From the IMG/VR virus record IMGVR_UViG_3300020373_000003, positions 1 to 60,307 of that record: a stretch of 60,307 nucleotides of DNA, one strand, 5' to 3'. The notes below the pieces were generated by a model. That model made no database searches and was not told the DNA's origin. It saw only the letters and a program-made list of their open reading frames with translations. This document shows, one piece after another, positions 10,672 to 59,070 of this stretch (its first letter is position 1; the number at the start of each line of letters is the position of its first letter). A program made the position numbers and the translations under genes. The DNA comes from a virus. Lineage: Duplodnaviria; Caudoviricetes.

Positions 10672-11380
10672 ATTTTTTATAGCGACACCATTTGGCAATT
10701 ATATTAAACACGAAAATGCAATTAGAGTAAAAGGCACATATACAATATTACCTAGACCAGGATTAATTAAACAACTAATTAAAACTCTTAGATATGATTT
10801 TAATAAAAAAGGTTGGAAAAACGAATTAGGACTCTGTAATCCAGGGATTAGATACGGACTTAATAAATACAGAAACAACGGCAAAGAAGTTATAAGCATT
10901 GCCGCAATACTACCAATTGATTGGGTAGACTTTGCAAAAAAAATACCTGATCATGTAAACTTAGAATTAAATTTAAGTTGTCCAAATATCGATAAAGTAG
11001 AAATAGATTATAAAGCCCTTACTAAGTTTTATAATGCATTTTGGGATAATAAACGAGAATGGTGTATAGCCAAAATATCGCCCCTATCTACAAAGGACGA
11101 AATCAAACGATTATTAGACATTGGGTTTGGTCAGATCCACTGCTCCAACACCCTCCCTATTACTGGCGGAGGATTGAGCGGAAAGGAATTGATAAGTTAT
11201 ACGATCAAACACATAGATTACATAAAGACACAGTTTCCCTCAGTGAAGATTATCGCAGGAGGAGGAATTAATCATATTGATATTGTAAATTATTATAAAA
11301 GTAAAGGTGCAGATTATTTCAGTTTAGGAACTGTATGTTTTACACCTTGGAAATTACTAAAAATACTTAATGCCAAGTAA
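10631..11380 (+). CDS. pyrD: Dihydroorotate dehydrogenase-like FMN enzyme
   Basis: NELGLCNPG, ELNLSCPN (catalytic Cys), AKISP, SNT, GGLSG and IIAGGGI motifs of class 1 DHODH. Start codon uncertain (10607 or 10631). Confidence 0.75.
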   Translation: MQKTKTDLTQKKNKFFIATPFGNYIKHENAIRVKGTYTILPRPGLIKQLIKTLRYDFNKKGWKNELGLCNPGIRYGLNKYRNNGKEVISIAAILPIDWVDFAKKIPDHVNLELNLSCPNIDKVEIDYKALTKFYNAFWDNKREWCIAKISPLSTKDEIKRLLDIGFGQIHCSNTLPITGGGLSGKELISYTIKHIDYIKTQFPSVKIIAGGGINHIDIVNYYKSKGADYFSLGTVCFTPWKLLKILNAK

Positions 11381-11885
11381 AAGTAAAACAAAAGGCAGTT
11401 CATTTGAAAGAGAAATAGCAAAAGAACTATCGGATTTATATAATGAGAGCTTTATAAGGACTCCATCGTCGGGTGCTTATGTTGGCGGCTCTAATGTCGT
11501 AAGAAAAGATTTTTTATCCGAGGGTCAAATACAATCCTTCAGAGGAGACATAATACCACCCGACGACTGGAAATATTTTAACGTTGAATGCAAATCATAT
11601 GCTGATTTCCCTTTTCACCAATTTTTATGTCAAGGTGATATTAGGTTATTAGATGAATGGATAGAACAAATACTAGAAGTAGCAGAAGAAAAAGATTTAA
11701 ACTTATTAATACTAAAATTTAACCGCAAAGGCAAATACATAGGCTTCCAAGAACACTTACTTAATTCTTCATTCTACACATATAGACACATAAACTACAA
11801 AGGCTGGATTTTTACAGGCTACAAAGACTTTATGGAACAAAACAATGGCTCAATTAAATACCTCTCAGTTGAAGGGGTACTATAG
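11370..11885 (+). CDS. Holliday junction resolvase (Hjc-like PD-(D/E)XK nuclease)
   Basis: KGSSFERE...SGA...GDI...VECK motif. Confidence 0.8.
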   Translation: MPSKSKTKGSSFEREIAKELSDLYNESFIRTPSSGAYVGGSNVVRKDFLSEGQIQSFRGDIIPPDDWKYFNVECKSYADFPFHQFLCQGDIRLLDEWIEQILEVAEEKDLNLLILKFNRKGKYIGFQEHLLNSSFYTYRHINYKGWIFTGYKDFMEQNNGSIKYLSVEGVL

Positions 11886-11886
11886 C

Positions 11887-12243
11887 CTCAATTGTCGTAA
11901 GACCGGTTGAGAACGAGTACGCTCGTTTAGATCTCCGTTGGCAAAAACTGTAAAAAAAACGAGCAGGCTCTCCTGACAATTTGGAACCTGCAAGGTATAT
12001 AAGGTAGATCTAATTGCTTTATATAAACCTGCGTTGGATAAGCAGAACATAAAAAGGTACCGCCCAACCGCCTTAACCTATATGGTTGTTCTATTAGAAT
12101 GTGCTATGTCCGAAGGAAATAGTTAACTTAGCCGTAAACAGGCTAAGTGTGACTTGACTCTCAGGAAATAGTTAAATAGTAATAATAGAAGTTCGATATG
12201 AATTACGAAGTAATGAAATATCGTGATGAGCTTTAGCTCATCA
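11887..12243 (+). ncRNA. Candidate structured non-coding RNA or cis-element
   Basis: ORF-free ~370 nt with at least 8 hand-identified stems, including GTAA (GNRA) and TACG (UNCG) tetraloop hairpins. Confidence 0.5.
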
Positions 12244-12257
12244 TTAAAGGAAGGTAA

Positions 12258-12779
12258 ATGAAATTAACTGATGTTGACTATCCTCAAATATACTGCGACA
12301 TGGATGGAGTTTTAGTAGATTTAATTAAAGGGGCAACTAAAATATTAGGTTATGATTTTGCTAAACGTTACGGATACGTTTCAGGAAAACATGAACTATG
12401 GGATCAATTAGCAGAAGATAAAATGTTTTGGGCTGAATTGCCTCCTATGCCTGATAAAAATCAATTATGGAATTTTATATCAACTTTCCAACCTTACATA
12501 TTAACCGCTATTCCTGCTGTTAGGTTAATATGGGATCCTCCAGCAGGAATACAAAAAGCAATGTGGTGTGAAAGAAACTTAGGTATTAGTAAAGATAGAG
12601 TATATGCAGTAAAACGGCCTGACAAAAAACATTTTGCTAAATCTCACGATGGGCGGCCTAATATATTAATTGATGATCATCCGCAAAATATTAATGAATG
12701 GAATAAAGCAGGTGGTAAAGGAATACATCATACTTCAGCAAGTAATAGTATTAAACAATTAGAAACTTTCGGTTTTTAA
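12258..12779 (+). CDS. HAD-family 5'(3')-deoxyribonucleotidase (NT5C-like)
   Basis: YCDMDGVL, ILTA, QK and ILIDD...NINEW motifs. Confidence 0.85.
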   Translation: MKLTDVDYPQIYCDMDGVLVDLIKGATKILGYDFAKRYGYVSGKHELWDQLAEDKMFWAELPPMPDKNQLWNFISTFQPYILTAIPAVRLIWDPPAGIQKAMWCERNLGISKDRVYAVKRPDKKHFAKSHDGRPNILIDDHPQNINEWNKAGGKGIHHTSASNSIKQLETFGF

Positions 12780-12999: not shown

Positions 13000-14061
13000 T
13001 TAGCCGAAAAAAACTGTTGGATCAAAAATAACAGGAATCGAATTTACTTTGGCACAATCTTTACAACTAAAATCAACACTACTTTTAAAACCAGCTTCTG
13101 TTACCTTTAGAACTTCTGATGATATTTTTTCAAATGTGTTTTTACCAACATCATGTAACCATTCAGCAATCAATTGTTTATCCTCAATACTTTCTTGAGG
13201 AGTGTCTATTTTTATAATTGATCGCAATATTAATTCATATGTTATTTCTGTTATCTTCCTTAACGATTTACCTAGCTCAACTTGTTTGTCAGCATCTGTT
13301 GTTTCAGTATCAACTAAAATATTATTAGTAATTGCTTGCTGTTCAAAAGTAGCCAAAGCAGATTGAATTTGACAACGAAGATCATATGGTTTAACATATA
13401 CAGTTAATTCATCTATACTTGCTTTATATTCTCTTTCAAGAAAAGTAATTTGGGTATCTAATAAAAATTCAATGTCTACACTAAATTCTGTTGCAGTAGC
13501 ACAATCAGGACATCCTCCGGTATAAGGGAAGTCTTTACCATATGTTGCTAATCTTATTGCTAACATCAATACACTAAAATCAGGTCCAGGTATTTCGTTA
13601 GGATCTTCAATGCCTGGTACACATGATTTAACTACTTCGATTAAAGATTCACCATTCATTAAAATATCAGGTGATTTAAATAATAATTCATCTTTAGCAG
13701 TCATAGGTCGTACAAGTACTTCATCTAAACTTGATAATAACGGTTTCTTTGTATAAAAATTACCTTTACTTGGTAATACAACATAAACACCCGGAGGTCT
13801 ATGATATTGCATTAATGGATTAGAAGAAGTAGTTTCTAATACTGTATGCCGTATATTATGTTTTTTAGTTTCAACAGGTTGTTCTTCTTTTTTAGCCTGT
13901 TTAGGAATAGTTGAAAAATTATCTAATGCTTGATTTGCTATTTTTATAACAGGGTCTGCTTCTGGATTGTCTTTGTGTTTTTCTATAAATTGTTCTACTT
14001 GTTTTTTTGATTCGTTAATGTCATAAAATTCGTTTAATATAACATTTGCATCTTCTGGCAT
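13000..14061 (-). CDS. gp26: Baseplate hub assembly chaperone (gp26-like)
   Basis: NPL...LPSKG.FY, PMTAKDE, AIRLATYG, two CxxC pairs (CPDC, CKDC), ending in FFG. Confidence 0.75.
   Translation of the reverse strand: MPEDANVILNEFYDINESKKQVEQFIEKHKDNPEADPVIKIANQALDNFSTIPKQAKKEEQPVETKKHNIRHTVLETTSSNPLMQYHRPPGVYVVLPSKGNFYTKKPLLSSLDEVLVRPMTAKDELLFKSPDILMNGESLIEVVKSCVPGIEDPNEIPGPDFSVLMLAIRLATYGKDFPYTGGCPDCATATEFSVDIEFLLDTQITFLEREYKASIDELTVYVKPYDLRCQIQSALATFEQQAITNNILVDTETTDADKQVELGKSLRKITEITYELILRSIIKIDTPQESIEDKQLIAEWLHDVGKNTFEKISSEVLKVTEAGFKSSVDFSCKDCAKVNSIPVIFDPTVFFG
13006..13014 (-). other. Candidate -1 ribosomal frameshift slippery site (GTT TTT TTC)
   Basis: T-TTT-TTC heptamer just before the stop; the -1 frame continues into the 12776..12973 ORF; downstream CTCCGG/CCGGAG hairpin. 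Confidence 0.6.
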
Positions 14062-55866: not shown

Positions 55867-56057
55867 TGTTTTCCTTTCGAAAATGCTTAATTTTATGACA
55901 TTTTTCTCATTGAGTATTTACCCCATTATAATATAATTTAACCGGTTACGAGAAATTTAAAAATTTCTGCGTAAATACCTAGCATTGTGTATAAAAAATA
56001 AATATATATGGAAACCTATAATAGGAAACCACGTTAATAATTAAAGCGGGGTAACAT

Positions 56058-56339
56058 ATGTTTCTTACAGATCATCTACAAAATGCGGCAAAAGCCGCCA
56101 AACGAAAACCAGGATGGGGTTACTATTTTTTTCATGCCTGGGTTGCACTTAAATGTGGAACCATATACTACTACATAGCATTCTTCTCTCAAGTACACGC
56201 AATTTTCCCATTTGTTCACGCAGATTTTGGGCTCGCAGAAATGATTGTAGCCCGAACCAATGTAATTCGTAAAAGTATTCCTAACTGGGAAGGCTGGAAG
56301 GAATTAGATAATTGGGACGATGAAAAATATGCCTCTTGA
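56058..56339 (+). CDS. Small hypothetical protein with conserved-looking His pattern
   Basis: HL...Y..H...HAIFPF pattern; GGGG SD upstream. Confidence 0.6.
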   Translation: MFLTDHLQNAAKAAKRKPGWGYYFFHAWVALKCGTIYYYIAFFSQVHAIFPFVHADFGLAEMIVARTNVIRKSIPNWEGWKELDNWDDEKYAS

Positions 56340-56386
56340 TAATTTTTTAGAACGATTAGATAAAGAGCGAATAACAAGGGCCCATT

Positions 56387-58978: not shown

Positions 58979-59070
58979 TGGCTCTGGGGGTAGGAATCGA
59001 ACCTACACGCCCCTCTGCAAAGGGACAATACGCAAACAACGTACCACGTCTACCGTTTCGTCACCCCAGA
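58979..59070 (-). tRNA. tRNA with GTT (Asn) anticodon, long variable arm and encoded CCA
   Basis: TCTGGGG TG ACG AAACGGTAGA CGT G GTACG TTGTTTG CGTAT T GTCCCTT TGCA GAGGGGC GT GTAGG TTCGATT CCTAC CCCCAGA G CCA; all stems pair. Confidence 0.88.

Follow-up and report, generated by a model that had tools for sequence, protein, structure and literature searches.

Large RNAs that combine several pseudoknots with invariant unpaired bases are rare, and the past cases have been ribozymes, riboswitches or ribonucleoprotein cores. Among the described systems with which the element reported here can be compared, GOLLD and ROOL are often phage-borne, the packaging RNA (pRNA) of phi29 carries two loops that are complementary to each other, and HEARO, the omega RNA of IscB, is a large structured RNA, recognized by comparative genomics, that lies beside a nuclease gene. 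Polynucleobacter-1 (RF01718) is a motif reported in 2010 from Burkholderiales and from fresh water or an estuary, and was listed as a likely RNA, likely cis-regulatory and with a question mark as a switch (Weinberg et al. 2010, PMC2864571). A full-text literature search returned no other paper naming Polynucleobacter-1.

The element examined here lies on the + strand of a 60,307-base viral record with a completeness estimate of 15%, the whole of which was analysed and is referred to as the window. With GOLLD and ROOL (Nature 2025, PMC12286853), it shares large size, rich structure and the lack of a known function, but it gives no Rfam match, is smaller (~300-400 nt), has another fold and belongs to T4-like phages of water bacteria. 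Like phi29 pRNA, it comes from phages, keeps its fold and has short, putative specificity loops that vary from one related phage to the next; here, however, the two boxes are identical, and packaging genes are absent nearby. Like HEARO or omega RNA, it is a large structured RNA adjoining a nuclease gene, but its site carries one or the other of two unrelated nuclease folds, and it has neither a long, variable terminal guide nor an Rfam match. It shares an aquatic origin and orphan status with Polynucleobacter-1, which in relatives adjoins the same core, whereas the 5' domain in the window is a much smaller hairpin-in-helix unit, and the core of ~230 nt, the twin boxes and two hairpins (A and B) all lie outside the Rfam model. 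Literature searches yielded no description of the core or the twin boxes; the 2023 catalogue of viral structured RNAs (PMC10690425), which has only models of 29-151 nt, may include pieces of this RNA, its alignments being outside the scope of our search.

A covarying fold on the + strand

The stretch at 11886-12257 (372 nt) is the longest internal stretch of the window free of open reading frames (ORFs) of at least 60 aa, a ranking that sets aside the cut left end of the window and agrees with what a sequence-only reading of the same DNA had noticed. A protein-coding gene was rejected, because the element contains no ORF of at least 60 aa and because relatives differ by inserted hairpins (for example, 401 versus 372 aligned bases) and by paired substitutions. 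The minimum folding energy on the + strand was -108.1 kcal/mol, compared with -78.5 ± 5.0 kcal/mol in 100 dinucleotide shuffles (z = -5.98), and none of the shuffles folded as well; on the - strand, z was -3.53. When a model built by hand on the window was projected onto a MAFFT alignment of 56 distinct sequences and the pairs were counted, pairing was found in 91.8% of 2687 cells, compared with 33-48% after the 3' partners had been slid by 1-3 columns, a control that favours the model, which itself came from the window. The double changes, in which both sides of a pair differ, are free of this bias and occurred at 34 of the 49 pairs, and the covariation score of 0.513 was reached by none of 500 shuffles (0.188 ± 0.007). 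G-U pairs are frequent on the + strand (GU:39, GU:27 and GU:16 at three pairs) and would be A-C mismatches on the - strand, which identifies the + strand as the RNA strand. The earlier proposal of a structured + strand phage RNA is strongly backed by the covariation in 56 distinct relatives and by contigs from RNA libraries that cover the element, and the existence of a structured RNA at 11887-12243 (+) is almost certain.

In our model, a small 5' domain leads to a core of ~215 nt (11963-12176), after which come an AU-rich spacer and, at the 3' end, a pair of hairpins (Table 1); the fold outlined by the compensatory changes contains a pseudoknot formed over a long range, a kiss between two loops and a three-way junction. 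In helix Pa, which carries the conserved loop CUGAC, double changes were found at six of eight pairs. The loop of hairpin Pb (12005-12016) supplies the 5' strand of the pseudoknot, and the kiss between the loops of Pc and Pd becomes GUCA/UGAC, GUUGC/GUAAC or GUUGA/UCAAC in other clades. Helix Ph, which closes the junction around Pd and Pe, was absent from the stems listed by the earlier reader. Hairpin Pg together with the nearly invariant UGUGAC (12148-53) is the best-conserved part of the family (12127-12153). Some close relatives carry a 29-nt extra hairpin (UUGAAAACGAAA...UUUCGUUUUCAA) in the loop of Pe (L008:3700-3740, and likewise L016, L017 and L020), a peripheral insertion of the kind that structured RNAs typically tolerate.

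Table 1. Features of the element and of the adjoining genes, by position in the window
Feature	Position	Strand	Evidence or detail
PDDEXK_15 putative phage endonuclease gene	11370-11885	+	Pfam PF24608, E 3.3e-26
Reduced 5' domain, hairpin-in-helix unit	11892-11937	+	H1, Px, H2 and joining strands
Conserved joining strands UUGA / AGAUCU	within 11892-11937	+	
H1, GUC-GUAA-GAC	11894-11903	+	pairs in 35/36 cells
Closing helix Px	11904-06 with 11935-37	+	CACC/GGUG, CUCA/UGAG, CGUC/GACG in other clades, by eye
H2	11911-11928	+	69/72 cells pair; AU/GC exchange
A-rich linker	11938-11960	+	extra hairpins here in some relatives (alignments)
Helix Pa	11963-67 with 11987-91; inner 11971-73 with 11983-85	+	100% and 92.9% paired
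Hairpin Pb	11994-12029	+	up to 6 pair types per position
Long-range pseudoknot	12009-12014 (UCUAAU) with 12093-12098 (AUUAGA)	+	6/6 pairs double-changed, 96.1% paired
Hairpin Pc	12030-32 with 12042-44	+	
Pc-Pd loop kiss	GUUGG 12033-37 with CCAAC 12064-68	+	96.4% paired, 3/5 pairs covary
Helix Ph	12046-49 with 12087-90	+	column-pair scan; 89.3% paired, 3/4 covary
Hairpin Pd	12054-57 with 12071-74	+	100% paired, 3/4 covary
Pe	12077-78 with 12084-85	+	
Variable hairpin Pf and box R1	12104-12126	+	R1 = AGGAAATAGTTAA, 12114-12126
Hairpin Pg	12127-33 with 12141-47	+	97.7% paired
Box R2 in the 3' tail	12163-12175	+	exact copy of R1
Hairpin A: outer stem, GA / GAA internal loop, inner hairpin	12194-12223	+	covariation
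Hairpin B, G+C-rich stem-loop	12224-12243	+	covariation
NT5C-like 5'-nucleotidase gene, downstream	12258-12779	+	Pfam PF06941, E 7.1e-4, weak, below the curated cut-off
T4_baseplate gene	13000-14061	-	

Most of the stems proposed from the letters of the window alone reappear in this model. The GCAGG/CCTGC stem is paired in every sequence at all five of its pairs, four of which covary; the long stem at 11993-12030 is backed by the covariation of Pb; the ACTTAGCC/GGCTAAGT stem corresponds to Pg, with the pairing given in Table 1; the AACGAG/CTCGTT stem corresponds to H2, with AU:7 and GC:5 at one pair; and compensatory changes were seen in both the CGATAT/ATATCG stem (61 of 72 cells paired) and the TGATGAGC/GCTCATCA stem (81 of 88). 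Two proposals held in part. The pairing of GCGTTGG with CCAACCGC is real, but it is the loop-loop contact between Pc and Pd and not a hairpin of its own; and in the first hairpin, CTCAATT-GTC[GTAA]GAC-C-GGTTGAG, the inner GUC/GAC is conserved, whereas the outer CTCAA/TTGAG pairs in 40 of 60 cells, two of its positions pairing in just 4 of 12 and 2 of 12 sequences. The suggested alternative pairing of 11921-28 with 11957-64 found no support, as the local hairpin changes from U to C while the partner stays unchanged (CA in 5 of 12).

Beyond the core, hairpin A starts 30 to ~110 nt after box R2 and has an internal loop of GA / GA(A); its pattern was detected in 44 of 65 distinct relatives, several of the misses carrying hairpin A by eye, and in 30 of 650 shuffles. 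Hairpin B follows directly after hairpin A in relatives, as judged by eye, and both hairpins are kept whether the next gene is co-oriented or convergent. Pairing of the tail with the loop of Pa is tentative, as the 71% of paired cells (no more than 50% when slid) is a weak signal with no clear double changes; if the pairing existed, R2 would belong to the fold and would not be free. The AU-rich spacer (12176-12193) and its counterparts contain, in some relatives, words that resemble the T4-type late promoter word TATAAAT (PMC9004378), one relative (L021) having TATAAATA. One RNA contig begins at 12203, and the downstream gene may have a late transcription start. A search for promoters and terminators found none that was prominent, with 8 promoter-like sites against 12.6 expected.

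Genomic site, distribution and expression

On the + strand, the genes leading up to the gap are a Metallophos (Mre11-like) gene, an AAA_23/Rad50 zinc-hook gene, a DHO_dh-like ORF and then the PDDEXK_15 gene, the 3' end of which abuts or overlaps the start of the RNA. The only DNA match to an isolated phage found by blastn is a short piece of the NT5C gene in the Methylophilales phage Melnitz (Kyanoviridae), which has an NT5C homologue without the adjoining gap; from these genes and this match we conclude that the window comes from an uncultured T4-like myophage of the sea. In relatives, the intergenic stretches homologous to the gap are 37-42% G+C, compared with 30-35% in the 2-kb windows around the site. 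Among 11 upstream ORF fragments from diverse relatives, six are of the SegE-type GIY-YIG fold, four are PDDEXK_15 and one is neither. The next ORF after the RNA, as far as crude ORF calls allow, is convergent in 29 of 52 relatives, lies on the same strand in 20 (a same-strand gene within 200 nt) and falls into neither class in three. In many relatives a small ORF and the T4_baseplate gene converge on the RNA from downstream, and the downstream genes vary from clade to clade. Taken together, the upstream nuclease genes and the downstream orientation counts indicate that the RNA holds one genomic site, at the end of a rightward block, where the nuclease gene that precedes it has one of two unrelated folds. 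The alternation of two such folds makes a dedicated nuclease-RNA partnership unlikely and fits homing-type genes beside a conserved RNA gene.

The SegE-type gene takes the place of PDDEXK_15 upstream of the RNA in L080, L054, L048, L122, L165 and L195, a swap that looks like selfish nucleases trading places beside a conserved RNA gene. Elsewhere in the window, a second stretch poor in long ORFs lies at 55867-56386 (191 nt at a threshold of 60 aa, 520 nt at 100 aa) and gave no Rfam match at E values up to 1.

Several searches were combined to delimit the family. A protein search with the PDDEXK sequence returned 44 viral loci, of which 21 proved by blastn to have the gap sequence next to them, with identities of 94-71%, and a few more were recognized by eye; in the gaps of remoter loci, the same motifs are split by variable hairpins. 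A 14-base motif search yielded at least 119 stretches, and a gapped pattern yielded 60, of which 58 are relatives by eye and the other two loci carry one unrelated G+C-rich sequence. With the window sequence as query, nhmmer matched 124 of 223 collected loci, amounting to 70 distinct stretches. The RNA family is common in uncultured T4-like phage contigs from both sea and fresh water. When the RNA of the window and those of two relatives were compared by blastn with 50,697 phage records, no isolated phage matched the RNA, and the gapped pattern, run against one genome each of 185,579 prokaryote species, gave 32 matches of which one is a true relative. That distribution argues for an RNA of uncultured lytic-type phages and not of cells. 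The lone relative from a prokaryote genome (L229) is situated on a 3-kb contig of a Flavobacteriales metagenome-assembled genome, and is probably a phage fragment binned with it. A diverged subfamily (L029:3517-3921 and L036:3517-3960), which was left out of the family counts, has the same type of 5' domain and the same layout, with a core sequence that is otherwise different; its boxes, ACAUGAA, stand on either side of a hairpin GGAACC...GGUUCC, which is followed by GUCUGAC.

Six metatranscriptome runs contain a small share of the 2-kb stretch, and four of them were compared with the window. One RNA-library contig of 272 nt corresponds to 11873-12145; a second run provided a 163-nt contig (11953-12115), one piece spanning 11911-11981 and another contig covering 12203-12430; in a relative, an 869-nt RNA contig extends from inside the nuclease gene to 12166; and the fourth run (X18) covers upstream genes only. 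No joined or skipped forms were seen in the four runs, and the contigs end at different positions (12115, 12145 and 12166). The RNA is therefore present in RNA libraries and co-transcribed with the nuclease gene, as seen in contigs, for which DNA carry-over is possible and which give neither ends nor levels.

The Polynucleobacter-1 domain and the twin boxes

At gathering scores, the whole window gave no Rfam match, and a permissive search of 11700-12400 gave no Rfam family at E values up to 10 apart from two chance hits (MicF and BSnc150). Only the permissive run counts for the element, since the fast-filter run over the whole window missed a tRNA at 58982-59070 (-) and such filters can evidently miss real RNAs. 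This tRNA (~89-92 nt) is called as Asn (GTT) by ARAGORN and scores 41.4 bits against the Rfam tRNA model in a permissive run; its length, unusual for a tRNA, hints at an intron or at an extra arm of large size. Several known kinds of RNA were considered for the element and set aside. ARAGORN found no tRNA in the element and no tmRNA in the window, and no Rfam tmRNA model matched at E values up to 10; tmRNA, in one piece or as a permuted two-piece form, is described in Melnitz-like phages (PMC9004378). A group I or group II intron was rejected, there being no Rfam match and the flanking ORFs both being complete and separate, and no Rfam model of the known small self-cleaving ribozymes matched at E values up to 10.

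In relatives, the situation is different. When 20 of them were searched with cmscan, RF01718 was found in nine, at 44.9-109.8 bits against a gathering score of 37, a level that the window did not attain even at E values up to 10. These hits cover the 5' domain only and stop a few bases short of the core that these relatives have in common with the window. A profile (nhmmer) built from the nine hits placed RF01718 5-23 nt upstream of the core in at least 22 of the 58 distinct members with 200 nt or more of upstream sequence, a lower bound because further members (such as L191 and L039) carry a diverged copy by eye. The earlier description of the element as uncharacterized therefore holds for the window, which lacks an Rfam match, but not for the family, in which the same core is fused to RF01718. 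Its place directly upstream of the shared core suggests that RF01718 forms the 5' part of a larger RNA, and the simplest reading of this arrangement would be that it represents one version of a changeable 5' domain, the core of the larger RNA being absent from Rfam. The window element is a new, reduced variant of this composite RNA, only the accessory 5' domain of which has been catalogued so far.

Concerted change of the two boxes is the strangest feature of the RNA. The 13-mer AGGAAATAGTTAA occurs as exactly two copies in the window, at 12114 and 12163, and a search of the 60-kb window for a third copy or a reverse complement found no excess (6 matches, 4.9 expected). Family members repeat in their tail a 5-13-nt box that is part of hairpin Pf, and R2 begins 11-13 nt past the Pg motif in most relatives. 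The longest word shared by the middle region and the tail of the same sequence was at least 7 nt in 51 of 67 sequences, a length reached in 3.9% of 3402 cross pairs, in which the middle region of one member was set against the unlike tail of another. The 31 variants of the box correspond to 31 different tail 10-mers, and in close, otherwise alike relatives both boxes have changed together (for example, GGUAAAG, GGCAAG and GACAAG). Within a phage the boxes are identical, between phages they differ, and the two evolve in concert. The boxes flank Pg, and upstream of each stands UGUG, followed by a linker that is similar in length for both, so that the 3' half of the core resembles a pair of like modules with this hairpin between them. 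Most clades have R1 inside the apical loop of Pf or adjoining it. Duplex scans for an internal partner of the boxes found no site that recurs across clades: the Pd/Pe strand suits the boxes in some clades (such as L102) but not in the close relatives L126 and L068. A ribosome hop like that of T4 gene 60 was rejected, as the boxes are in no reading frame and both run into stops.

Possible modes of action

We favour, with a probability of roughly 0.4, a stand-alone structured RNA that acts in trans and whose scaffold displays two specificity boxes. Three observations fit this choice best: the fold is complex, the family is confined to phages, and the boxes are displayed and change fast; from these we infer both the action in trans and the role of the boxes. 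The upstream nuclease gene would be transcribed together with the RNA, which would form the tail of that transcript, and the core is locked by the long-range pseudoknot, the loop-loop kiss and the three-way junction. Such an RNA would most likely work alone in trans, possibly with a protein, its rigid, conserved scaffold presenting R2 within the 3' tail and R1 inside a hairpin loop or next to one, and the identical, clade-specific boxes may recognize their partner by base pairing. A more specific proposal, which we consider rather improbable, is that the family would form a new class of phage RNA, its fixed scaffold of ribozyme grade carrying two programmable, co-evolving boxes for guiding to targets or for cutting, with Polynucleobacter-1 as an accessory 5' domain. 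If the boxes were guides, they would lead the RNA, alone or with a protein, to two copies of a short target in phage or host nucleic acid; if they were cutting sites, the core would cleave both and free the invariant Pg hairpin as a small RNA.

The listing of RF01718 as probably cis-regulatory, with a question mark as a switch (PMC2864571), raises the possibility, in our opinion a doubtful one, of a cis-acting, riboswitch-like regulator in which the core binds a ligand or protein while R1 and R2 are alternative partners of one strand. The choice between them would then govern how the next gene, which in the window is the NT5C-like nucleotidase that follows hairpins A and B, is reached by read-through, processed or translated. 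Direct repeats that co-vary are to be expected where two strands compete for one partner, the 5' strand of Pf in the window can pair with R1 locally or with R2 in the minimum-energy fold, conserved hairpins A and B stand just before the next gene, and that gene is on the same strand in 20 of 52 relatives. However, a position consistently upstream of a same-strand gene is not what these counts describe, and the convergent next ORF in 29 of 52 disfavours a 5'-UTR switch, though a cis role may hold in the others; the downstream genes also differ among clades. In the comparison made for an expression platform, R1 equals R2, yet no partner strand common to the clades is conserved, and several clades have R1 in an apical loop with its complement absent nearby. 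The nuclease genes offer another starting point: with two unrelated folds at one site (six SegE_GIY-YIG and four PDDEXK_15 of 11) and an 869-nt RNA contig that links nuclease gene and RNA, the element could be a 3'-UTR element of the nuclease mRNA, protecting or timing the upstream transcript, or a conserved site at which homing endonucleases land, in which case the nuclease genes, SegE-type or PDDEXK, would be selfish settlers beside a conserved sequence. We think this unlikely, as a stabilizer would need neither a double pseudoknot nor co-evolving boxes, PDDEXK_15 homologues without the RNA exist (blastn found the stretch at 21 of the 44 loci, to which reading by eye added a few), and the status of a homing site is silent on the role of the RNA itself.

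Fold complexity of ribozyme grade, invariant unpaired bases and identical sites on either side of the best-conserved hairpin would suit a self-processing ribozyme, the core of which cuts, or cuts and joins, at both boxes and so frees a Pg hairpin unit of ~49 nt or sets the 3' end of the RNA. Contigs end 2 nt into R1 (12115) and 4 nt into R2 (12166), contig ends being weak evidence, but R1 is crossed unbroken by the contig that extends to 12145 and by the one that extends to 12166; neither a joined nor a skipped form appeared in the four RNA runs, and no known ribozyme family matched at E values up to 10, so that we regard self-processing as very unlikely. The RNA-primed replication origin that the sequence-only reading had offered would fit a non-coding stretch where converging gene blocks meet, but it found no support in the cumulative GC skew, which does not turn at the site. 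There are no iterons besides the two boxes, and the compensatory changes, G-U pairs included, preserve RNA pairs on one strand only, which leaves an origin with an RNA primer extremely improbable.

The RNA has two identical boxes that change in concert over 31 variants, a feature for which we found no earlier description and which provides a direct handle for experiments. The larger molecule to which they belong absorbs an orphan Rfam motif of 2010, and it is widespread in the uncultured T4-like phages of sea and fresh water.
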